Source: a virus
Lineage: Duplodnaviria; Heunggongvirae; Uroviricota; Caudoviricetes
Length of the DNA: 13,482 nucleotides
Direction: 5' to 3' (one strand)
Virus record (IMG/VR): IMGVR_UViG_2541047885_000013
Coordinates: 1-13,482 of that record
A model generated the notes under the pieces. The model worked only from the letters and a program-made list of their open reading frames with translations. It did no database searches and was not told the origin of the DNA. Of the stretch, positions 1-13,266 are shown piece by piece (positions within the stretch are counted from its first letter, which is position 1; each line of letters begins with the position of its first letter). The position numbers and the translations under genes were made by a program.

Positions 1-1284
1 TTACTTCTTCGCCTCTGCAACCACTTTACTACCCACGCCGCGGTTATTGTATTCCCACATGCGGTTGTAGTTAGTGTCATTCAGATTGCGCTGTATTTCG
101 TCGTTATCATCTACGCTGCCGGTATTACCCGCAAACGGACGATTAGAGATCACCGCATCGGCCCACGGTTTAGCCGTGTTAAAACCTTCGTTGATGGCGC
201 TATCACGGATCACCACCTGACCGTTGGTATTGGCATCAACATCCAGCGAGCGGCCCAGTTGCGCCACACCATCACCGAAAGCATTGAAACGGCTGTTTAC
301 GGCGAGGAAACCGTAGTAAATGTTGGACAGCGTAGCCGGTGCAAACACATACGCTTCTTGCTGAGTACGTGAGTTCACCACGCGGAATTCGGTGTTATCG
401 AACACCACTGCGCCGCGACCAGAAACGATATCCACATCCCCTTCAATGTAGCTGTTGGTCACCAGCGTACGCGGCTGACGATTCGTTTCCAGACGGTTCT
501 GCACACCGCTGTTGGTGACAAAGAAGGTGTTCTGACGACCGAGAATGTTAACGTTGTTAATCTGTACCTGGTCACCATCAGTACGCAGTGCCACCGCCGG
601 ATGGTTACCTGCATCTACGCTATCGCCCAGCGTGTTTTCGATGGTCAGATTTTGCAGTTGCAGGCCATTGTTTTGTGACCAGAAGACCGCAGAGCAGAGA
701 ACACCGATACTGTCGCTGCGTTTGCTCTGGCAGCTATCGTACATATACCACGCTGGTTTACCTGGCATATATTTGCCGCGCGGGTTGACGTCGTGACGCC
801 AGTCGGCAGGGCTCATGCCACCATCAAGGGAAAGCCCAATCTTCACATCAATCGGTTTTTCACCTGTACCGTACAGAGTAATTCCACCCGGAGCGGCAGG
901 GACATATACCGTTCCCTGATACTCACCAGGCATCACGGCAATATACTGGCGCTTGTTGGTACGCTTGATAATTGCCGCATCTACCGCCGCCTGAATCGTG
1001 GTATGCGTTACACCTTGAGTGCCCGCCGGGCCGACAACAAAGTCAGGTTGCGCAGGCAGGGTAATCGGGGAAGGATTCCACGCTGCAGCACCTGGTGTCA
1101 GGGATGAAAAATAGTGTTGAGCATCGAAATTCTGCGCTTCTTTTGCCGACAGAATCGGGCGAGAAGAGGTACCAGGCGCGGTTTGATCAGAAGGACGTTG
1201 ATCGGGCGGGGTTGAGCTACAGGCGGTCAGCGTCACGCCAAAAGCCAATGCCAGCGCCAGACGGGAAACTGAAAATGTGTTCAC
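1..1284 (-). CDS. ybhC: YbhC, putative pectinesterase-family outer-membrane lipoprotein (host gene flanking attλ)
   Basis: Complete 427-aa ORF from the track; N-terminus has a lipoprotein signal with lipobox LTAC; sequence matches my recollection of E. coli YbhC, which lies next to attλ on the gal side. The window begins at its stop codon. Confidence 0.85.
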   Translation of the reverse strand: MNTFSVSRLALALAFGVTLTACSSTPPDQRPSDQTAPGTSSRPILSAKEAQNFDAQHYFSSLTPGAAAWNPSPITLPAQPDFVVGPAGTQGVTHTTIQAAVDAAIIKRTNKRQYIAVMPGEYQGTVYVPAAPGGITLYGTGEKPIDVKIGLSLDGGMSPADWRHDVNPRGKYMPGKPAWYMYDSCQSKRSDSIGVLCSAVFWSQNNGLQLQNLTIENTLGDSVDAGNHPAVALRTDGDQVQINNVNILGRQNTFFVTNSGVQNRLETNRQPRTLVTNSYIEGDVDIVSGRGAVVFDNTEFRVVNSRTQQEAYVFAPATLSNIYYGFLAVNSRFNAFGDGVAQLGRSLDVDANTNGQVVIRDSAINEGFNTAKPWADAVISNRPFAGNTGSVDDNDEIQRNLNDTNYNRMWEYNNRGVGSKVVAEAKK

Positions 1285-1330
1285 AGGTTGCTCCGGGCTA
1301 TGAAATAGAAAAATGAATCCGTTGAAGCCT

Positions 1331-1420
1331 GCTTTTTTATACTAAGTTGGCATTATAAAAAAGCATTTCTTATCAACTTGTTGCAACGAACAGGTCACTA
1401 TCAGTCAAAATAAAATCATT
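1331..1420. other. attL: attL of a lambda-type prophage: 15-bp core GCTTTTTTATACTAA (1331-1345) followed by the P' arm
   Basis: Core is read directly at 1331-1345. The following GTTGGCATTATAAAAAAGCATT..CTTATCAA..TTGTTGCAACGAACAGGTCACTATCAGTCAAAATAAAATCATTATTTG matches the remembered lambda attP P' arm (Int arm-type sites) with about 2 mismatches. Host sequence lies to the left and int immediately to the right. Confidence 0.85.
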
Positions 1421-2489
1421 ATTTGATTTCAATTTTGTCCCACTCCCTGCCTCTGTCATCACGATACTGTGATGCCATGGTGTCCGACTTATGCCCGAGA
1501 AGATGTTGAGCAAACTTATCGCTTATCTGCTTCTCATAGAGTCTTGCAGACAAACTGCGCAACTCGTGAAAGGTAGGCGGATCCCCTTCGAAGGAAAGAC
1601 CTGATGCTTTTCGTGCGCGCATAAAATACCTTGATACTGTGCCGGATGAAAGCGGTTCACGACGAGTAGATGCAATTATGGTTTCTCCGCCAAGAATCTC
1701 TTTGCATTTATCAAGTGTTTCCTTCATTGATATCCCGAGAGCATCAACATGCAATGTTGTAGGGATGGCAATTTTTACGCCTGTTTTGCTTTGCTCGACA
1801 TAAAGATATCCATCTACGATATCAGACCACTTCATTTCGCATAAATCCCCAACTCGCTGCCCGGTAACAACAGCCAGTTCCATTGCAAGTCTGAGCCAAC
1901 ATGGTGATGATTCTGCTGCTTGATAAATTTTCAGGTATTCGTCAGCCGTAAGTCTTGATCTCCTTACCTCTGATTTTGCTGCGCGAGTGGCAGCGACCGG
2001 GTTTGTTGTTATATGGCCTTCAGCCATTGCCTCTCGGAATGCATCGCTCAGTGTTGATCTGATTAACTTGGCTGACGCCGCCTTGCCCTCGTCTATGTAT
2101 CCATTGAGCATTGCCGCAATTTCTTTTGTGGTGATGTCTTCAAGTGGAGCATCAGGCAGACCCCTCCTTATTGCTTTAATTTTGCTCATGTAATTTATGA
2201 GTGTCTTCTGCTTGATTCCTCTGTTGACGAGGATTTTTTCGTAGCGATCAAGCCATGAATGTAACGTAACAGAATTATCACTGTTGATTCTCGCTGTCAG
2301 AGGCTTGTGTTTGTGTCCTGAAAATAACTCAATGTTGGCCTGTATAGCTTCAGTGATTGCTATCCTCCTGTCTCGGCCTAAACCAAACTCTTTACCCGTC
2401 CTTGGGTCCCTGTAGCAGTAATATCCATTGTTTCTTATATAAAGGTTAGGGGGTAAATCCCGGCGCTCATGACTTCGCCTTCTTCCCAT
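1419..2489 (-). CDS. int: Integrase (tyrosine recombinase), lambda Int type
   Basis: 356-aa translation MGRRRSHERRDLPPNLYIRNNGYYCYRDPRTGKEF...RDDRGREWDKIEIK matches lambda Int over its full length from memory; position next to attL and overlap with xis are as in lambda. Confidence 0.96.
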   Translation of the reverse strand: MGRRRSHERRDLPPNLYIRNNGYYCYRDPRTGKEFGLGRDRRIAITEAIQANIELFSGHKHKPLTARINSDNSVTLHSWLDRYEKILVNRGIKQKTLINYMSKIKAIRRGLPDAPLEDITTKEIAAMLNGYIDEGKAASAKLIRSTLSDAFREAMAEGHITTNPVAATRAAKSEVRRSRLTADEYLKIYQAAESSPCWLRLAMELAVVTGQRVGDLCEMKWSDIVDGYLYVEQSKTGVKIAIPTTLHVDALGISMKETLDKCKEILGGETIIASTRREPLSSGTVSRYFMRARKASGLSFEGDPPTFHELRSLSARLYEKQISDKFAQHLLGHKSDTMASQYRDDRGREWDKIEIK

Positions 2490-2685
2490 TTCTGATCCTC
2501 TTCAAAAGGCTACCTGTTACTGGTCGATTTAAGTCAACCTTTACCGCTGATTCGTGGAACAGATACTCTCTTCCATCCTTAACCGGAGGAGGGAATATCC
2601 TGCATTCGCGCACCCATCGACGAACTGTTTCAAGGCTTCTTGGGCGTCGCTGGCGTGCGTTCCACTCCTGAAGTGTCAAGTACAT
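2467..2685 (-). CDS. xis: Excisionase, lambda Xis type
   Basis: 72-aa translation MYLTLQEWNARQRRPRSLETVRRWVRECRIFPPPVKDGREYLFHESAVKVDL... matches lambda Xis; its 3' end overlaps the int start by 23 nt as in lambda. Confidence 0.95.
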   Translation of the reverse strand: MYLTLQEWNARQRRPRSLETVRRWVRECRIFPPPVKDGREYLFHESAVKVDLNRPVTGSLLKRIRNGKKAKS

Positions 2686-3172: not shown

Positions 3173-3329
3173 GGTGTTCTTTCAGTTCTTCAATTCGAAT
3201 ATTGGTTACGTCTGCATGCGCTATCTGCGCCCATATCATCCAGTGGTTATAGCAGTCGTTGATGTCCTCTGCTTCGATAACCCTGTCGAATGACTCTCCA
3301 TTCCATTCACCTGTGACTCGGAAGTGCAT
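3162..3329 (-). CDS. Small hypothetical protein, 55 aa (MHFRVTGEWNGESFDRVIEAEDINDCYNHWMIWAQIAHADVTNIRIEELKEHQTA)
   Basis: Hand-translated ORF, below the track length cutoff; GGAG lies 8 nt upstream of the ATG (tatGGAGatgataaATG); bracketed by terminator-like hairpins upstream and downstream. In a different frame from the track's 61-aa ORF 3236..3421. Confidence 0.45.
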   Translation of the reverse strand: MHFRVTGEWNGESFDRVIEAEDINDCYNHWMIWAQIAHADVTNIRIEELKEHQTA

Positions 3330-3339
3330 TTATCATCTC

Positions 3340-3367
3340 CATAAAACAAAACTCGCCGTAGCGAGTT
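3340..3367 (-). terminator. Terminator-like hairpin (AACTCGC-tacg-GCGAGTT followed by TTTGTTTTAT on the minus strand)
   Basis: Inverted repeat read directly, about 65 nt downstream of the DUF551 gene stop, with a T-rich tail on the minus strand. Confidence 0.4.
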
Positions 3368-3429
3368 CAGATAAAAGAAATCCCCGCGAGTGCGAGGATT
3401 GTTATTCACCTTTGACGGCAAGTTGAAGG

Positions 3430-4350
3430 TTAGCCACGGTTAACCCCCTGCGGCGGTTCTGGCAGCGGCATCCAGTGGGTTACGTCATCCAAGATATTTC
3501 CTGATAAATATGTGAAAGCTCTATATTTTTTGTAATCAATTGGACTCATTACCCAGTTCCAATATGCTGCCACTATTTGACCTTGACTAAATGCCAGTAA
3601 CATTTTGGTGTCGTCCGGCATTCGCTCACTACAGCTTATCCAACCATCCGGAGTTACCGGAACTTGTGGAATGGCTGTCTGCTCTCGAACGTCATTAGGC
3701 GCTATAGGTTCTGCTGCCAACTGACTGGCATATTTGTTAATGGTAACGATAAGCTCTTGCTCAGCCTCATCCAGACAATCACCGATACCTCGCCTGTCAC
3801 CGTCAAAATCATCGAAATCGGCACGAATCCTGGCAACCTTCAGGATTGCGGACAACACCTCACTAGGAATTGCCGGATAGTTGGTTGACGTTTCCGCGAT
3901 TTCCCGAAAATTATTGGTTGACGAATTCTTGTTTTCCCGAAAGTTTCCGGACTGAAGCATGGCGGCGCGGCAGGCGTTCCATATTTCGGCAGCAATATCG
4001 CGCTCGCTATCGGTTAATTTGTACGTTGAAACATAGCCAGAGAGCATTTCTACGTTTTCCGGAGTTGCTTCTTCAGGCACTACCGGTGCTGGAGGGGCGG
4101 CGTAAATGCCCTCTATCACTAAATGTTTGCGCTCAAAATCATCTGGCTCTCGATGATATACGTAACTCCAATCACCAAGGTTATCATTGCGCCTGCAACG
4201 GAAACCTATCGGCTCTGCTTCCAGCGATGCCAGAGCAATTCGTGCCAGTTCTTCCGCTTCTTCTGCTGGCAGTACAACGTTGCTACCAGGTCCGTATGTT
4301 TCGCGCCACTGCCTGATTGTCAGCAGTCGCTCTTTGGTAATAGTGGTCAT
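3430..4350 (-). CDS. DUF551-like prophage protein, 306 aa
   Basis: Track ORF; the C-terminal segment ending ...VTHWMPLPEPP resembles the DUF551 domain common in enterobacterial prophage early regions; the N-terminal two thirds are unassigned. Confidence 0.65.
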   Translation of the reverse strand: MTTITKERLLTIRQWRETYGPGSNVVLPAEEAEELARIALASLEAEPIGFRCRRNDNLGDWSYVYHREPDDFERKHLVIEGIYAAPPAPVVPEEATPENVEMLSGYVSTYKLTDSERDIAAEIWNACRAAMLQSGNFRENKNSSTNNFREIAETSTNYPAIPSEVLSAILKVARIRADFDDFDGDRRGIGDCLDEAEQELIVTINKYASQLAAEPIAPNDVREQTAIPQVPVTPDGWISCSERMPDDTKMLLAFSQGQIVAAYWNWVMSPIDYKKYRAFTYLSGNILDDVTHWMPLPEPPQGVNRG

Positions 4351-4360
4351 GTGTTAGTCC

Positions 4361-4624
4361 TTATCCTGCTGTACTTTCAACTGATGAGGGGAATAAAATC
4401 TTTTCATCAAATCCGGCATTCATATCATGAACAGCAACACACCAATCCATTGACGAACGATTATCAAGAGCTTCCATGATTTCATCCATGCGGCGCAGGT
4501 CATACAGGTAAATGCTTTTATCGCCAATGGTGTAAAAACCAATTTTTTTCGGTGATGGGCAGCGATCAAGAACGTCCTGTAATTCGCTCAACCATGCTTG
4601 TTCTTTTTTTGTCAAAGTTGCCAT
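4361..4624 (-). CDS. Hypothetical protein, 87 aa
   Basis: Track ORF in the same orientation and tightly packed with its neighbours (2-nt gap to the next gene); no family recognised. Confidence 0.5.
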   Translation of the reverse strand: MATLTKKEQAWLSELQDVLDRCPSPKKIGFYTIGDKSIYLYDLRRMDEIMEALDNRSSMDWCVAVHDMNAGFDEKILFPSSVESTAG

Positions 4625-4625
4625 A

Positions 4626-5168
4626 TCACTCTCCTTTGATGCGAATGTCAGCGACGCGTAATGCGTGTTCTAGGTCAATCAGGTAAAGCCAACTGCCATT
4701 TTCTTTAGGTATCATGACTTGTCGCTCATCTGCATTTATCGGGTGTCCATATCGAAGGTCGTAGCGAGTCGGTAATTGAACTTCCCGCGCTTCCAGTTCA
4801 GCAATACGCTTGCACCCATCAGAGATAACTCCCTCGTAATACTCGCGCTGCTCGTTGAGTTTTGATTTTGCTGCTTCAAGCTCAACGCGCAGCTTCCCAA
4901 CCGTAAGCGCAATATCCTCGTTCTCCTGGTCGCGGCGTTTGATGTATTGCAGGTTTCTTTCCCGTTCATCCAACAATGCCAGCACGGTTTCTGGTCAGGT
5001 CAGAAATTTGAAGGCGTTGAGCGCATCAATATCCACACCGTAATCTTTAAGTTCCTGTTCACTTATCAGATCATCATCAACTGGCAACATTAACAGGCGT
5101 TCCATTGCCGGAATTGCACGTTCTGCCGCCTCACGCAGCGCCAGTGTGTCGATGTCGATGTTGCTCAT
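4626..5168 (-). pseudogene. ea22-like coiled-coil gene interrupted by an in-frame TGA (5' part 4995..5168, 3' part 4626..4985)
   Basis: Track ORFs 4995..5192 and 4626..4985 are in the same frame, separated by one TGA and three sense codons (...FKFLT*PET-V-LALLDERER...). The 5' part has a strong RBS (GAGGAGG) before MSNIDIDTL. The 3' part begins at a GTG with no recognisable RBS. The combined length of about 180 aa is close to lambda Ea22 (182 aa, from memory). Confidence 0.45.
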
Positions 5169-5398
5169 TGTGCCTCCTCGATTTCGTCCCATTCCACCCA
5201 GGCATTCTCTCCATCAGCATCGATTTCACCTTTGTGACCGCATTTGGAACAAACGGCCTCATCACCCGCCCACAAAGAATCTTTGGTTACCGACCATCCT
5301 GTTACCTTGGCTTTGCCGTGCTGGCACTTAGGGCAATCATCAAGCCATTCGACTTCGACCATTGAAGGACCAAATCCATGTTCAGTTCGGATGCTCAT
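5165..5398 (-). CDS. Small zinc-ribbon protein, about 77 aa (two CxxC pairs: CPKC and CSKC)
   Basis: Track ORF 5165..5431; I prefer the start at MSIRTEHG because its ATG overlaps the stop of the upstream gene as ATGA. Its own stop overlaps the start of the ea22-like gene in the same way. Confidence 0.55.
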   Translation of the reverse strand: MSIRTEHGFGPSMVEVEWLDDCPKCQHGKAKVTGWSVTKDSLWAGDEAVCSKCGHKGEIDADGENAWVEWDEIEEAQ

Positions 5399-6398: not shown

Positions 6399-6713
6399 TT
6401 AATTTATTCGTATGCCTGCTCTTCCTTCATCGAGTTTTTTTAGCTTGTATCGCATAGCTCTCACTGAATAAATTGAGCGGCAGGTTGCAATTGCTATTTC
6501 TTCTGCGGAGAACTTACCGAAAAGTGATACTTCGGCTCTTGTCCAGCGTCTTCCACGAAGTCGGCTAACAATGTCAGCGCCAATCCTTGTTGCTTTCGCC
6601 ATTACTGCTTTTTCAGTCCTTTCCAGTTTTTCAGCGATAACTTCAACTGGCATTGTCGCCGCTACTTCGCGCAAGAAATCGACTTCCCATTTCTCCCATG
6701 GAGTCTTTTTCAT
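6399..6713 (-). CDS. Hypothetical protein, 104 aa, with two tandem HTH-like motifs
   Basis: Track ORF. Two internally similar segments (W-x3-E-V..(E/V)EIA...R(T/S)...V.A...) match the general pattern of sigma-region-4/LuxR-type helix-turn-helix motifs; this is a pattern judgement, not a search hit. Confidence 0.55.
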   Translation of the reverse strand: MKKTPWEKWEVDFLREVAATMPVEVIAEKLERTEKAVMAKATRIGADIVSRLRGRRWTRAEVSLFGKFSAEEIAIATCRSIYSVRAMRYKLKKLDEGRAGIRIN

Positions 6714-6724
6714 AGGCGATACCG

Positions 6725-7207
6725 TTATTTGATAAGAAGTGAAGGTTTCCCAACCTTGAGTTGAGCGCCTGGGATATTTATTCCTGCTTTTAGTTGGTGC
6801 TTGATTGCCAGTTTGTCGGCTTTAATTGTCGTTTCGAACTCAACGTATTCAGGAGGAAGGGCGCTTGAGTCGATGATTTCTACAATTTCTGACGGTTTGC
6901 GGATTGTTACCTGGTGAATACCTGCTCGAATATTTTTCTTGCCAACCATTTCAAGCGATGACGCTATATATGATTTGATGCTGTCAATCTTATTTTGAAT
7001 TACTGCGGCTCGCTCATTCAGTGACTTTGCCTCTTCCTTGAGGCGTTCAGCATAACCAGATTCATTTTTAATGACGGAAAGAAGTTGCTCTATTTTATCG
7101 GTAAATTCTCCTTCCATGCCTTCTATTGTGTCAGCAATCATCTCTGGTTCTAAATCTGAATCCATCAATTTTGCGTATTCATTGGCAATTTCATATAGTT
7201 TGCTCAC
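6725..7207 (-). CDS. Coiled-coil protein resembling the siphovirus Gp157 family, often found beside phage recombinases
   Basis: Track ORF 6725..7213 begins at a TTG; I prefer the GTG start two codons in (GGAGG about 6 nt upstream). The family assignment is from recollection and the genomic context directly downstream of recT. Confidence 0.4.
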   Translation of the reverse strand: MSKLYEIANEYAKLMDSDLEPEMIADTIEGMEGEFTDKIEQLLSVIKNESGYAERLKEEAKSLNERAAVIQNKIDSIKSYIASSLEMVGKKNIRAGIHQVTIRKPSEIVEIIDSSALPPEYVEFETTIKADKLAIKHQLKAGINIPGAQLKVGKPSLLIK

Positions 7208-8102
7208 TGGCAACCTCCAGTTTCGCTTTGCATTCTGCGTAAATGGCTTGTACGTTCTGCTGCAATTTCATTCCAGATGTCAGGCGATATGCTTCTGCAA
7301 AATATCGCTTCAAATCATCCATGTTTTCAGCCTGAGCCATTTCATCACAAAGAAGTTGTGCTTTATCCGTTATTTCCTGCTGGCGTTTCCGTTCATCTTC
7401 GCGGATATCTTCCTCTGATTTGTGCGGCATAACTGGTTCAGTCCACACACCTTCTTCTTCGTTTAGTACGTGAATAGCACTATCAAGACGTGATGCCTTA
7501 GGCCAATACTTGCTTGCACGCTTTACGACCGTCTTTCGCGCCATCTCATTCCAGTGATTTACCCATGGTCCTTTATCGCTGAATGCCGCCTTGCTTGTTT
7601 TCCTTACAGCCTCAATTTCAGCCAGACTCATCTCTTCCGTTAGATAATCACCTGCTGGCGTCTTAACTGTGCAGTAAACGCCAACGATATCACCACGATC
7701 ACCGAAGGCGTTGTATTTATGGGTTGGTGCTTTATCAAGCCCGTTTGACTCATAGGTATCGTTAGCATGAACAAGTTTTGCCTGACCCCATGAGATAACA
7801 CCAGACTCCATTGCAATATGGAGCAATCCCATATAACTGATATCAAGGCACACCATGCCGTCGCGAGGAACCAGATAAGCCAGTTTGCTGGCCGGGTTTA
7901 AGGTGATGCCGATCGCCGCAACATTGATGATGGCGTTCTGTGCGCTGGTTGGATTTGCCAGTGCCGTTTTAGCCAGGTAATCATTTTTCTGGAAATACTG
8001 AATTGCAAACTGGCTTTCCTTAGCCCATGTCACCGTCTGTTCAGTCAATGCTCCGCAGAATAACTGCTCTTGCTGTTTAACGAATTCAACGATATTGCTC
8101 AT
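7191..8102 (-). CDS. recT: RecT-family single-strand annealing recombinase
   Basis: 303-aa translation contains ...GPWVNHWNEMARKTVVKRASKYWP..., closely paralleling Rac RecT ...GPWVTHWEEMAKKTAIRRLFKYLP..., plus the RecT-like segment NVAAIGITLNP. Confidence 0.8.
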   Translation of the reverse strand: MSNIVEFVKQQEQLFCGALTEQTVTWAKESQFAIQYFQKNDYLAKTALANPTSAQNAIINVAAIGITLNPASKLAYLVPRDGMVCLDISYMGLLHIAMESGVISWGQAKLVHANDTYESNGLDKAPTHKYNAFGDRGDIVGVYCTVKTPAGDYLTEEMSLAEIEAVRKTSKAAFSDKGPWVNHWNEMARKTVVKRASKYWPKASRLDSAIHVLNEEEGVWTEPVMPHKSEEDIREDERKRQQEITDKAQLLCDEMAQAENMDDLKRYFAEAYRLTSGMKLQQNVQAIYAECKAKLEVASEQTI

Positions 8103-8410
8103 GCAGCTTCTCCATAAATATGTCTGCGTTTGAATATTGCGAAGGCATATTCAGCCTTAACTCTTTCGGTTATTGCATCCCAGAACCATTCAGCGGCTTT
8201 TTCCTGATAGTTACAGTCATCATCTTCCAGCCAGTCGATAGCGTCCTTAGTGTGTTCATCTGGTTTATATGAGCGAAGCATTTCGCTTATTGGGTCGCAA
8301 CGTTTGCAGAGGCGATCAACTTCACTGTTGATTCGTTCGTAATCTTCATCAGTAAAACTTGCGATTATTTGCGATATTTCACGCTTATCATTCAGAGTCA
8401 GAATCATCAT
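8099..8410 (-). CDS. Hypothetical protein, 103 aa
   Basis: Track ORF; AGGAG lies 4 nt upstream of the ATG; its stop overlaps the recT start (ATGA). Confidence 0.55.
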   Translation of the reverse strand: MMILTLNDKREISQIIASFTDEDYERINSEVDRLCKRCDPISEMLRSYKPDEHTKDAIDWLEDDDCNYQEKAAEWFWDAITERVKAEYAFAIFKRRHIYGEAA

Positions 8411-8495
8411 CTTTCTCCTGTTCTTTGTGCTGATTGAGCATTTTGTTCATCTGACGAATGAATTCTTCGTCTGACCAGTTATCTGTAAAACTCAT
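8388..8495 (-). CDS. Small acidic hypothetical protein, 35 aa (MSFTDNWSDEEFIRQMNKMLNQHKEQEKDDDSDSE)
   Basis: Hand-translated; its start overlaps the stop of the cIII-like gene (ATGA); its 3' end overlaps the start of the 103-aa gene in another frame. Weak RBS. Confidence 0.3.
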   Translation of the reverse strand: MSFTDNWSDEEFIRQMNKMLNQHKEQEKDDDSDSE

Positions 8496-8662
8496 GGACG
8501 GCCTTGTTGTTTCAAAATATCCCAAAGCTTTTCGAGCAAACTTTTCATTCTTGGTTGTTTAAAGTCTGCTCCGGTTAAAATATTTTTTCGTGAATGCTGT
8601 ACCGATAAAATCGGGTTGAAAGGGCGAACCGATGCCGCCCCTGCAATAGCGAACTGTTGCAT
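8492..8662 (-). CDS. cIII: cIII-like protein, 56 aa (putative FtsH inhibitor)
   Basis: Internal start of track ORF 8492..8767, with AGGAG 5 nt upstream of the ATG. The translation MQQFAIAG...KSLLEKLWDILKQQGRP resembles lambda CIII (MQYAIAGW...ESLLERITRKLRDGWKRLIDILNQPGVP, from memory), and it lies in the expected position in the pL operon. Confidence 0.5.
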   Translation of the reverse strand: MQQFAIAGAASVRPFNPILSVQHSRKNILTGADFKQPRMKSLLEKLWDILKQQGRP

Positions 8663-8866
8663 AGGATGCTCCTTCTGTTTGATTGCATAACGAAAACGCC
8701 TCAAGTGAAGCGTTATTGGTATGCATATAAAAAAGCCCTCACATAGGAGGGCAAAGAAGATTTCCAATAATCAGAACAAGTCGGCTCCTGTTTAGTTACG
8801 AGCGACATTGCTCCGTGTATTCACTCGTTGGAATGAATACACAGAGCAGTGTTTATTCTGTTTTTT

Positions 8867-9064: not shown

Positions 9065-9391
9065 TCAAATAAGTGGTTTGCTGCCTAATTTCATTTTCTG
9101 GCGACCAACACAAGTCACACCCATTTCACTGCGTGGCTTGCTGTACCATGTGCGCTGATTCTTGCGCTCAATACGTTGCAGGTTGCTTTCAATCTGTTCG
9201 TGGTATTCAGCCAGCACTGTAAGGTCTATCGGATTCAGTGCGCTTTCTACTCGTGATTTCGGTTTGCGATTCAGCGAGAGAATTGGGCGGTTAACTGGTT
9301 TTGCGCTTACCCCAACCAACAGGGGATTTGCTGCTTTCCATTGAGCCTGTTTCTCTGCGCGACGTTCGCGGCGGCGTGTTTGTGCATCCAT
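9065..9391 (-). CDS. N: Antitermination protein N (lambda type)
   Basis: 108-aa translation MDAQTRRRERRAEKQAQWKAANPLLVGVSAKPVNRPILSLNRKPKSRVESALNPIDLTVLAEYH... matches lambda N (arginine-rich boxB-binding motif at the N-terminus); the extreme C-terminus differs. Confidence 0.93.
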   Translation of the reverse strand: MDAQTRRRERRAEKQAQWKAANPLLVGVSAKPVNRPILSLNRKPKSRVESALNPIDLTVLAEYHEQIESNLQRIERKNQRTWYSKPRSEMGVTCVGRQKMKLGSKPLI

Positions 9392-9813: not shown

Positions 9814-10473
9814 TTAACTAAATGTCTCTTCAGGCCACTGGCTGGCGATAACTTTCCCTACTACGGAACAGCTATCATTGCATGGAATCATTGGATATTG
9901 CGGGTTTAGTGGCTGTAGGAACACCTGACCGCTATCCCTGATCAGTTTCTTGAAGGTAAACTCGTCACCACCAAGTCTGGCTATGCAGAAATCACCTGGC
10001 TCAACAGCCTGCTCAGGGTCAACGAGAATTAACATCCCGTCAGGAAAGCTTGGCTTGGATCCTGTTGGCGCGGTCATGGAATTACCTTCAACTTCAAGCC
10101 AGAACGCACAATCACTGGCTTTTTTGGTTGTGCTGACCCATCTCTCCGCATCACCTTTGGTAAAGGTTCTAAGCTCAGGCGAGAACATCCCGGCCTGAAC
10201 ATGAGAAAAAACAGGGTACTCATATTGTTTTTTAACGGGGGCAGATGAGTATTCGCCAACAGGTGAAAATGTACCGTCGTGGTTGAATGAGACGTTATCA
10301 ATACCAAGGTATTTAAACACCACACCAATCTCGTCAAGAGATGGATGACGAGATCCGCGCAACCAGTGACCAATTCCACCCTGCGTCATACCAAGCTCTT
10401 CAGCTAACTTCTCTTGAGTTATGCCGAGCTCTTTCATTCTGGATCTAGCCAGTTCATACCATTTCATTTTCAT
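9814..10473 (-). CDS. cI: cI-type prophage repressor: lambda-like C-terminal S24 autopeptidase/dimerisation domain joined to a non-lambda N-terminal HTH domain
   Basis: Track ORF 9814..10515. From ...[39 protein letters not shown]... to the end it matches the lambda CI C-terminal domain almost residue for residue (from memory). The N-terminal about 90 aa ([40 protein letters not shown]...) is an XRE-type HTH unlike lambda's. Start chosen at MKMKW (10473); 10467 or 10515 are possible. Confidence 0.85.
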
Positions 10474-10529
10474 ACCCTTATTATTACGCTCTGTACTAAA
10501 ACCATCCATGCACAAGATGTATTTTTTGT

Positions 10530-11232: not shown

Positions 11233-11379
11233 ATGACAAAACAACTCAGTCCTTACCAGGACAAAATTCACAAACACATACTACGTGATCGCTTCCTGTC
11301 CAGCTTCAAGCAGCCTGGTCGATTCCGGGCTGAGTTGGAAAAAGTGAAGCTGATGCAGAAGGAGAAAGGTCATGAGTAA
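11233..11379 (+). CDS. Small hypothetical protein, 48 aa, between cII and O
   Basis: Hand-translated ([48 protein letters not shown]); AGGAG lies 5 nt upstream of the ATG; its 3' end overlaps the O start by 8 nt. Confidence 0.35.
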
Positions 11380-12232
11380 TCTTGCAACCGTAACACATTT
11401 AAGGCCTTCACAACGGCCTGTGGAGCGTCGTGTGGCAGAAGTTGAAGATGGTTATACCCGTCTTGCAAATGCCCTGTATGAAGAGCTTATCGGCGCAGAT
11501 TTAACGAAAAATCAGAGCAAGGTTGCCCACGCCATATGCCGTAAAACATACGGCTACGGTAAAAAGATGGATCGCATCTCTGATAGTCAGTTAGCTCAAA
11601 TTACCAGGCTGCCAAGACAGAAGGTAAACAAGGCCAAGAATGAGCTTATCGCGATGAAGGTTATCCTTCGCGAAGGCCAGCAAATCGGGCCTAACAAGAA
11701 CATCGAGGAATGGCAAATCGAAGGGTGTCACTACTCTGGTGATAATGTCACTGCATTGGTGACAAAAAGTGTCACCAAAACGGTGACAGCGCTGTCACCA
11801 AAACAGGGACACACAAAAGAAACTATTACAAAAGAAAAAAGAAATAATAAAAACACTATGTCCGAAAGTGTTCGGACGGAGTGTGAAAAATCACCTGACC
11901 GTCACGAAGAAACCGACAAGGCATTCGAGGAAATATTCTGGTGTGCAGGCATGCGGAAAGCCGGGAAGAAAAACGCAGCTTCGGCATTCAGAACACAGTT
12001 CAGGGAATGGCGTAAAACTACCAGGGGTACGGCAAGCGAGTTTGCCACGATGCTGGCAGAAGACATCGCATGCAGGAATGGTAAGCAGTTCGGATTCGAC
12101 AGGTTGTTACCATCGAGCTACCTGAACGGTCAACGCTGGAACGACGAGAAGCCAGAAACTATTCAACCACAATCCAAACCATCATCCGCAATCACCGTAT
12201 CGAAAACTGGCTACGTGTTTTTCGACAGGTGA
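11372..12232 (+). CDS. O: Replication initiator, lambda O-like N-terminal iteron-binding domain
   Basis: The N-terminal region ([56 protein letters not shown]...GPNKNIEEW) parallels lambda O (DGYARLSNMLLEAYSGADLTKRQFKVLLAILRKTYGWNKPMDRITDSQLSEITKLP...GPNKNISEW); iterons lie inside the gene. The C-terminal half is not recognisably lambda-like. Confidence 0.8.
11726..11860. repeat. Putative replication origin inside the O gene: GTCAC/GTGAC iterons followed by an AT-rich tract
   Basis: Read directly: TGTCAC (11726), TGTCAC (11745), GGTGACA (11758), TGTCACC (11770), GGTGACA (11782), TGTCACC (11793), then an A/T-rich stretch (about 11815-11860). This organisation is analogous to the lambda origin. 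Confidence 0.6.
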
Positions 12233-12235
12233 ACC

Positions 12236-12343
12236 ATGAAATCAAAAATCAAATCGCTACTGGTCGCTGGTTATAACCACGGTTGGTTAAGTATTTCGTT
12301 TGTCGATTTCTGGTTTAAAAATCTCAATCTGAGGGAATCATGA
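12236..12343 (+). CDS. Small hydrophobic peptide, 35 aa (MKSKIKSLLVAGYNHGWLSISFVDFWFKNLNLRES)
   Basis: Hand-translated; AGGTGA lies just upstream of the ATG; its stop overlaps the start of the primase-like gene (ATGA). Confidence 0.35.
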   Translation: MKSKIKSLLVAGYNHGWLSISFVDFWFKNLNLRES

Positions 12344-13266
12344 CGCCAAGTGAACTCAGCGACCTGCTTTGGGCGCAGGTTGACAGGGTGGCTCCGCACC
12401 TGTTGCCAAACGGCAAGAAAGAGGGGCATGAGTGGGTTGCCGGTAACGTCAACGGTGACAAGGGAAACAGCCTTAAGGTCAACCTTAGCGGCAAGAAAAA
12501 ATGGGCTGATTTCGCTGAGGGAGACGGCGGTGACATGCTTGATTTGTGGATGGCGTGTCGTGGAATTAACCTGCATCAGGCTATGCAGGAAGCGAAAGCC
12601 TTTCTCGGAATCAAGGATGACGATCACCATTTCGATGCCAAACGTGAGAAGAAATTCTCCAGACCTGATCGCAAGAAAATCGCCCGCTATGTTACCAGAA
12701 CAGAATCCCATCTTGAGTACCTGCAATCGCGTGGCATATCGCCAGAAGTCGTAAAGCGCTACGAGGTTGTAAGCGGCAAGGTGTGGAATGGAGAGCGGGA
12801 ACTGGATGCTCTGGTGATTCCGTACAAACGCGATGGTGAGTTGTTGCAGGTCAAGCGAATCAGCACTGAGCGCCCGGACGGGAAGAAAGTCATTATGGCA
12901 GAAGGTGATTGCGAACCTTGTCTGTTCGGATGGCAGGCTCTGGACGCTGGCGTGAGGGCGGTTGTACTTTGCGAAGGCGAAATTGATTGTATGAGCTATG
13001 CGCAATACGGCATCTCGGCGTTATCCGTGCCGTTTGGTGGAGGGAAAGGCGCTAAGCAACAGTGGATTGAGTTTGAGTACCACAACCTCGACAGGTTTGA
13101 GGAAATATTCATCTCGATGGACGTTGATGATGTTGGTCGTGAAGCCGCAAGGGAAATCGCAAGCCGACTCGGTGAACATCGTTGCCGTCTTGTTACTCTG
13201 CCGTACAAAGACATTAACGAATGCCTGATGAATGGTGTTACCGAGGATGAAATCTGGCAGTACTGA
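12340..13266 (+). CDS. Toprim-domain primase-like replication protein, probably truncated at its 3' end by an IS insertion
   Basis: 308-aa track ORF with Toprim-like motifs (VVLCEGEIDCMSYAQYG and ISMDVDDVGREA). Its stop codon TGA (13264-13266) is the first three bases of the IS terminal repeat. Confidence 0.65.
   Translation: MTPSELSDLLWAQVDRVAPHLLPNGKKEGHEWVAGNVNGDKGNSLKVNLSGKKKWADFAEGDGGDMLDLWMACRGINLHQAMQEAKAFLGIKDDDHHFDAKREKKFSRPDRKKIARYVTRTESHLEYLQSRGISPEVVKRYEVVSGKVWNGERELDALVIPYKRDGELLQVKRISTERPDGKKVIMAEGDCEPCLFGWQALDAGVRAVVLCEGEIDCMSYAQYGISALSVPFGGGKGAKQQWIEFEYHNLDRFEEIFISMDVDDVGREAAREIASRLGEHRCRLVTLPYKDINECLMNGVTEDEIWQY

Follow-up and report, generated by a model that had tools for sequence, protein, structure and literature searches.

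The 13,482-nt stretch of DNA analysed here, referred to as the window, is the left arm of a lambdoid prophage. Its main features are collected in Table 1. A long early-left operon on the minus strand follows xis and has cIII, N and the cI-type repressor gene at its end; beyond the repressor, the plus strand encodes Cro, cII, an O-like initiator and a toprim primase. Read from N, the order of the cassette genes is N, cIII, the gene of a 103-aa protein, RecT and Gp157. The cIII-like gene is 171 nt long, equals gp43 of phage HK140 and delimits the recombination module on the promoter side. Transcription of the module starts at pL and proceeds leftward, passing N and cIII before it reaches the gene of the 103-aa acidic protein, then RecT, Gp157 and the gene of an Abc1-like helix-turn-helix (HTH) protein. 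An Ea22-like gene near the cassette is broken by an in-frame stop codon at 4995-4997. No Chi site is seen in the window where 0.3 would be expected, an expectation too low to be informative.

Table 1. Features of the window, with the profile matches behind each recombination-module assignment.
Feature	Position	Strand	Profile match or remark
ybhC	1-1284	minus	
int, lambda-type	1419-2489	minus	
xis	2467-2685	minus	
104-aa tandem-HTH protein	6399-6713	minus	phrog_323, E=3.5e-20
Gp157-family protein	6725-7207	minus	160 aa from the probable start GTG 7207; PF05565 (Sipho_Gp157), E=2.4e-37
RecT-family single-strand annealing protein	7191-8102	minus	303 aa; PF03837, TIGR00616, phrog_148
103-aa acidic all-helical protein	8099-8410	minus	phrog_3486 (family of unknown function), E=1.7e-59
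cIII-like gene	8492-8662	minus	phrog_550 ('CIII anti-termination'), E=4.2e-22, residues 36-91 of ORF 8492-8767
N	9065-9391	minus	
cI-type repressor	9814-10515	minus	

A sequence-only reading of the window had placed a RecT-family recombinase at 7191-8410 and remarked on the lack of a partner exonuclease. These coordinates span two overlapping open reading frames (ORFs), that of the 103-aa protein and that of RecT itself, and the recombinase is real. It exceeds the curated thresholds of both RecT/Red-beta family profiles, PF03837 (E=2.7e-32; 112.4 bits against a Pfam cutoff of 24) and TIGR00616 (82.4 bits against 52.65), and matches phrog_148 at E=1.7e-92; the match to LiRecT (7UB2) is weak and that to NF007351 partial. 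By these profiles, the window protein is a genuine annealase of the RecT family. The 103-aa ORF and RecT share the tetranucleotide ATGA, in which the stop codon of the former overlaps the start codon of the latter, with GGAG 8 nt upstream, an arrangement consistent with translational coupling of the two genes. On its other side, the RecT gene shares a 17-nt overlap with the Gp157 gene. The start of the latter is almost certainly GTG 7207, because this codon is preceded by GGAGG and gives the 160-aa length found in well over a hundred homologues.

The module continues downstream of Gp157 with the tandem-HTH protein of 104 aa. Its family, phrog_323, also holds P22 Abc1 (E=1.3e-23) and Mu gp9 (E=5.2e-29), whose gene adjoins Mu gam, so that by profile it belongs with the P22 Abc1-like HTH proteins; pairwise BLAST finds no direct match between the 104-aa protein and P22 Abc1. 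In phage Gally the same protein is annotated as 'similar to P22 Abc1', and it is a probable accessory member of the module. In SEN22 the 103-aa and 104-aa genes enclose another core of two genes, which encode a DUF3799 exonuclease and a 189-aa protein. This swap of the core shows cassette exchange between conserved flanks.

The search for an exonuclease covered the window and the near-identical HK140 genome. None of the 20 plausible left-operon proteins of the window has a nuclease match in Pfam or PHROG. Two custom exonuclease HMMs, one built from five YqaJ/lambda-Exo proteins and the other from five DUF3799/RecE-like proteins, detect nothing in the six translated frames of the window (all E>1, scores of 1.5 bits or less), and both are equally negative in the six frames of the complete HK140 genome and of the Gally locus. 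The annotation of the complete HK140 genome likewise lists no Exo, RecE or YqaJ; the only nucleases in it are two HNH proteins, RusA and NinB/Orf. A 5'-3' exonuclease gene of the lambda Exo/YqaJ or RecE/DUF3799 kind is, as far as these profiles and annotations reach, absent from both. The locus does not form a two-component exonuclease and annealase module of the lambda Red or RecET type, there being no such gene beside the annealase on six-frame search of the window, and the sequence-only reading was right that no exo/bet pair is present.

It was also right about the neighbours of RecT, neither of which looks like a nuclease. The 103-aa and 160-aa proteins match no exonuclease family, YqaJ and PD-(D/E)XK included, in Pfam, PHROG or the custom HMMs, and no nuclease is found among the top fold matches of their models, which are generic helical proteins. 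The model of the 103-aa protein is all-helical. That of Gp157 (pLDDT 80.7) combines a short helix with one of 68 residues, a beta hairpin and a small region at the C-terminus, hence a long helix with a small beta element. A nuclease fold in a neighbouring ORF, which that reading had named as its own refutation, was not detected.

One explanation for an annealase that stands apart from a nuclease is that the cognate exonuclease lies elsewhere in the prophage, beyond the 13.5 kb of the window. No more than the left arm and the first part of the replication region can be seen in the window, and stray HNH or DnaQ nuclease genes do occur outside the Rec module in some lambdoid phages (PMC12315714). 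However, the whole genome of HK140, which carries a 97%-identical cassette, contains no such exonuclease by annotation or HMM, the genes of the Rec module are contiguous in lambdoid phages (PMC12315714), and an exonuclease, when present, adjoins the single-strand annealing protein (SSAP) gene in all 17 contexts sampled here. A distant partner, as offered by the sequence-only reading, is therefore very unlikely.

The cassette is widely distributed. The 2.7 kb between 6300 and 9000 of the window align with HK140 over their full length at 97.4% DNA identity, and the region also occurs in the phages mEpX1, Gally, Kapi1, Louie and Dewey. The three-gene cassette is present in 264 of 5,426 complete E. 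coli genomes. The order 103-aa gene, RecT, Gp157 is kept in the plaque-forming phages HK140, mEpX1, Gally, Kapi1 and PA-1, a Pantoea phage, and in relatives from other genera in which the RecT core is 77-83% identical to that of the window. These observations bear on the idea that the module is a decayed remnant from which the exonuclease was deleted and in which RecT is being lost. Prophages often decay, and the interrupted Ea22-like gene lies nearby; against this, all ORFs of the cassette are intact, with the lengths found in plaque-forming phages, the tight gene overlaps are preserved, and the architecture is conserved across genera. Loss of a partner is likewise very unlikely. The cassette is a stable, conserved and common design, not a remnant.

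The protein encoded just ahead of RecT belongs to a small and narrowly defined family. The 103-aa protein has no match in Pfam, NCBIfam or PADLOC (a resource of defence and anti-defence systems), and no fold or sequence match in the PDB; its AF2 model consists of five helices (pLDDT 74.5). It is acidic, with a pI of 4.65 and a net charge of -9, as are all 33 aligned members of the family (pI 4.4-5.5). An exhaustive HMMER search of 1.84 billion proteins returns only 53 cluster representatives, nearly all of 97-110 aa. The family has a conserved C-terminal motif, E-[A/V]-A, which probably reflects the Shine-Dalgarno sequence and ATGA signal of the next gene.

The genomic position of the family is strict. 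Seventeen contexts were compared. Eleven come from divergent representatives of the family, with 24-50% identity, and four from sequenced phages; the other two are SEN22 and the window. In 17 of 17 the gene lies at that border of a recombination module which is nearest the promoter, in most cases immediately behind cIII or kil. It usually overlaps or abuts the next gene; in L010/L011 (L numbers denote sampled loci) one small gene lies between. What follows varies. The 103-aa gene precedes RecT and Gp157 in the window, L010/L011, L013, L019 and PA-1; RecT and YqaJ/Exo in L006, L009, ENT47670 and Midgardsormr38; ERF and YqaJ in L008; DUF3799 and RecT in L012, L018, L021 and phiEt88; and DUF3799 and the 189-aa protein in SEN22. 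In two further contexts the contig ends after the first downstream gene, which is RecT in L007 and DUF3799 in L017. The family is neither the missing nuclease nor a substitute for one, because it also sits upstream of modules that carry an exonuclease. The earlier suggestion that the 103-aa protein might be an unrecognised accessory factor is plausible in view of the synteny, and falls only in so far as the protein was to stand in for the nuclease.

Several known identities were considered for the 103-aa protein and rejected. It is not a nuclease, given the all-helical model and the lack of any nuclease profile or fold match. An 8.9-bit local match to the C-terminal helix of lambda Gam, around the motif DDDVEFQE, is not upheld by hhalign (probability 3.7%, over 19 columns only), and no Gam chain appears in the PDB profile and fold searches with this protein. 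Similarity to phi80 GamL is absent (hhalign probability 0.09%), and the precomputed records of 11 family members contain no GamL Pfam match, whereas the GamL of L023 has one. By sequence and fold it belongs neither to lambda Gam (PF06064) nor to phi80 GamL. Scores against P22 Arf, Abc1 and Abc2 and against RacC of the Rac prophage are at noise level (6.8 bits for Arf).

The slot that the 103-aa gene occupies is held by gamL in phi80 and by gam in lambda, and in L023 a GamL gene takes its place before RecT and Gp157. The 103-aa protein is probably a further component of the module, either a modulator of host nucleases or a cofactor of the annealase; as a family, a role as host-nuclease antagonist or annealase cofactor is plausible. 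A broader reading, which we hold only tentatively, is that phrog_3486 has gone unrecognised as a part of recombination modules in enterobacterial phages and could be a new, non-homologous antagonist of RecBCD or other host nucleases, or a general annealase cofactor. Listed with this reading are the shared slot of lambda gam, phi80 gamL and P22 arf, the overlap with the first recombination gene, and the association with any annealase (RecT or ERF) and any partner (YqaJ, DUF3799 or Gp157). If the 103-aa protein were such an antagonist, some modules scored as lacking an anti-RecBCD gene would have one. With its strict position, this uncharacterised family is a modest lead and an inexpensive candidate for a new modulator of host nucleases or a helper of the annealase.

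The second neighbour, Gp157, occupies a position that is elsewhere filled by an exonuclease. Gp157 lies beside RecT in the window, L010, L013, L019, PA-1 and L023; YqaJ/Exo does so in L006, L009, ENT47670, Midgardsormr38 and phi80; and DUF3799 in L012, L018, L021 and phiEt88. In the sampled contexts Gp157 and an exonuclease are never found together next to the same RecT. The two are mutually exclusive alternatives for the slot. A comparable slot is described in Firmicutes phages, in which a common position beside SSAP genes is taken by gp157, Mu gam-like, DUF2483 or DUF1351 genes (PMC8093625).

The leading interpretation of Gp157 is Gam-like end protection. PHROG labels the family 'Mu Gam-like end protection', and the Gp157-type protein of HK140 is classed as 'MuGam', an anti-RecBCD function, in the published catalogue of lambdoid Rec modules (PMC12315714). 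The name rests on this annotation and this classification, and our own homology tests are weakly supportive. PF07352, the profile of the Mu Gam / Ku-like DNA-end-binding proteins, gives recurrent sub-threshold matches, in 8 of 30 members of the Gp157 family (best E=0.0011), and an hhalign alignment of Gp157 with Mu Gam (E=0.047, probability 1%) pairs their C-terminal parts in the same order. A sequence-profile search of the PDB with Gp157 returns nothing, and none of the tests run links Gp157 to Mu Gam with significance, by sequence or by fold. We put the chance that Gp157 protects or manages DNA ends against RecBCD at roughly even.

The main rival to end protection is that Gp157 is a different, RecT-specific partner that replaces the phage exonuclease, for example by serving as adaptor for a host nuclease or helicase (RecJ/RecQ, or modified RecBCD), which it would recruit, or by loading RecT on SSB-coated DNA. 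The mutual exclusion of Gp157 and exonuclease beside RecT fits this proposal, as does the shortfall of Gp157 in sequence and fold comparison with Mu Gam. Some weight also attaches to L023, in which the anti-RecBCD gene gamL coexists with Gp157, a combination that would be redundant if Gp157 were only anti-RecBCD. However, the PHROG label and the class in PMC12315714 both group Gp157 with Mu Gam, the sub-threshold PF07352 matches recur, the weak hhalign alignment keeps the C-terminal parts in order, and in Firmicutes Gp157 genes and true Mu gam-like genes replace each other next to SSAP genes (PMC8093625). On balance, a recruiting or loading partner is unlikely, but it is the alternative to be taken most seriously.

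The RecT protein itself provides a further point, which counts for this rival as well as for the main explanation of the module. It consists of a core of approximately residues 1-220 and a C-terminal tail, residues 221-303. BLASTP aligns the window RecT with phi80 Rec at 59% identity over residues 4-219. In a single multiple alignment from which core and tail identities to the window RecT were taken, phi80 Rec reaches 61% in the core and 15% in the tail, and the RecT of L007 69% and 10%; the tails of these two proteins are alike. Three other Gp157-linked RecTs reach 77-83% in the core and 48-78% in the tail. On this alignment, the tail co-varies with the downstream partner, Gp157 or Exo. The final 80-odd residues are probably a contact surface for Gp157, because the tail is exchanged together with the downstream gene, and the pattern fits a remark in PMC12315714 that partner-interaction domains are shuffled. 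A mosaic or recombination breakpoint inside recT, at the domain boundary, could produce the same association without physical contact. The tail as a Gp157 docking site is a concrete hypothesis, which would be useful for recombineering systems built from this RecT clade.

Taken together, the locus is best explained as a complete, nuclease-less Rec module of a lambdoid prophage, of the HK140 type, which we infer to work like P22 erf-abc and not like lambda Red; the probability of this reading is about 0.8. The phage would supply an annealase and a protein that manages DNA ends, as P22 does with erf-abc. Gp157 would form a Mu-Gam-like dimer that binds double-strand ends and shields them from RecBCD, and the single-stranded DNA annealed by RecT would come from host nucleases or helicases, or from replication forks and rolling-circle tails. 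Several points weigh against this explanation: the weak outcome of the Mu Gam homology tests (hhalign probability 1%; sub-threshold Pfam matches in 8 of 30), the source of single-stranded DNA, for which there is no explanation should Gp157 seal ends as fully as Mu Gam does, the breakpoint in recT as another account of the tail, and the extent of the prophage beyond the window.

The sequence-only reading is partly supported, its observation being correct and its surprise unwarranted. Its premise, that RecT-type proteins normally sit beside an exonuclease, is overstated. Zheng, Casjens, Davidson, Amundsen and Smith (Genome Res 2025; PMC12315714) surveyed 325 lambdoid phages for their Rec modules, and 84 of the 246 Enterobacteriales phages with a recognisable Rec module are without a nuclease gene. 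The class 'anti-RecBCD + SAP, no nuclease, no SSB', whose prototype is P22, has 46 members, and HK140 is named with a SAP-4 RecT, no nuclease, no SSB and MuGam (PMC12315714). The window module falls among these nuclease-less modules, in the P22 functional class and the HK140 sequence type.

Among related systems, RecET of the Rac prophage has a RecT-family annealase, as does the window, but the RecE exonuclease VIII gene lies directly upstream of recT, a position for which the window has no equivalent, and Rac RacC is unrelated to the 103-aa family. The gamL-rec-exo module of phi80 and the Red module of lambda (gam-bet-exo) share with the window both the operon position and the order of a small anti-nuclease slot, an annealase and a partner. 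In contrast to the window, both have a YqaJ/lambda-Exo nuclease where Gp157 is found; phi80 Rec resembles the window RecT in its core while its tail is unrelated, and the 103-aa protein is detectably neither GamL nor Gam.

The arf-erf-abc1-abc2 region of P22 is nuclease-less like the window, and begins in the same manner with a small acidic ORF that overlaps the annealase start (arf in P22, the 103-aa gene here), followed by the annealase and then by RecBCD-handling proteins. The components differ. The P22 annealase is Erf and that of the window RecT; P22 has Abc2, whereas PF11043 is absent from the window and Gp157 stands in that place; and P22 Arf has no significant similarity to the 103-aa family.

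The closest system is the Rec module of HK140. [quoted passage not shown] There is essentially no difference between the two cassettes; HK140 has a different integrase and replication module, whereas the window carries a lambda-type int and xis next to ybhC. The locus is not anomalous, because a near-identical HK140 cassette is published and the arrangement is common. Lambdoid modules whose annealase has no exonuclease of its own are a normal and published design, and the arrangement in the window needs no special explanation, being that of the already known and widespread HK140-type module.

The window and Salmonella phage SEN22 are a clean case of cassette swapping between conserved flanks. 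The genes flanking the recombination cassette are the same in both, with the SEN22 103-aa and 104-aa proteins sharing 96% and 90% identity, respectively, with those of the window, whereas the two-gene core differs and in SEN22 consists of a DUF3799 exonuclease and a 189-aa protein without a Pfam match. In the RecT of the window, the C-terminal tail (residues 221-303) is conserved only among RecT proteins with Gp157 encoded downstream. The tails of phi80 Rec, an annealase of the RecT family, and of a RecT adjoining a member of the 103-aa family on another contig (L007) are unrelated to it; the cores of these two proteins nevertheless share 61-69% identity with that of the window RecT.

Both flanks display features of their own. 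The alignment of the 103-aa family (A4) reveals a conserved E-[A/V]-A at the C-terminal end, the protein conservation of which may be partly due to translational-coupling signals because its codons in the window (GAA GCT GCA TGA) contain the overlapping RecT ATG, with GGAG just upstream. At the other flank, the 104-aa HTH protein shares phrog_323 with P22 Abc1 and Mu gp9. Since the phrog_323 genes adjoin Gp157 in the window, where the HTH gene lies downstream, and gam in Mu, where gp9 lies directly upstream, an Abc1-like HTH gene beside a Gam-like gene may be a conserved pairing.

In a distant relative (L008), the early-left operon harbors a gene for Gad1 (anti-Gabija) two genes upstream of a module of 103-aa-family, ERF, and YqaJ genes. 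Its occurrence there is of interest as end-binding recombination proteins are reported to sensitise phages to Gabija (PMC12407980).

Features of the window and of related sequences.
Feature	Sequence	Position	Strand	Remark
ybhC	window	within 1-2685		427 aa, pectinesterase-like; adjoins prophage
Integrase, lambda-type	window	within 1-2685		Arm-DNA-binding domain
Xis	window	within 1-2685		
Ead/Ea22-like gene	window	4626-5192	minus	seemingly split in two
First ORF	window	4995-5192	minus	N-terminal part of PF13935 matched
Stop codon	window	4995-4997		between the ORFs
Second ORF	window	4626-4985	minus	C-terminal part of PF13935 matched
104-aa HTH gene	window	6399-6713		
RecT tail	window	7191-7440		
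E-[A/V]-A codons	window	8099-8110		
Recombination cassette with flanking genes	window	6399-8410		
Recombination cassette with flanking genes	SEN22 (L002)	3300-5312		
Replication module	window	11372-13482		initiator with TIGR01610 N-terminal domain
abc1	P22 (L005)	6971-7255		
gp9	Mu (L014)	1483-2326 region		
Gad1 gene	L008	2706-3680		

The two Ead/Ea22-like ORFs lie in one frame; either they are distinct genes or a single gene has acquired a nonsense mutation. At the prophage end, the ybhC neighbor, together with the lambda-type integrase and Xis, points to the lambda attachment site, or a position close to it, as the site of insertion. Coverage of the window is at most 62% in every complete E. 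coli genome of the collection searched, and its mosaic combination is therefore absent from that collection. In the replication module, the partner of the lambda-O-like initiator is a toprim/primase-like protein instead of a lambda P helicase loader. Read from the stop-codon-bounded segment, the primase ORF extends to ∼13266, near the window end.
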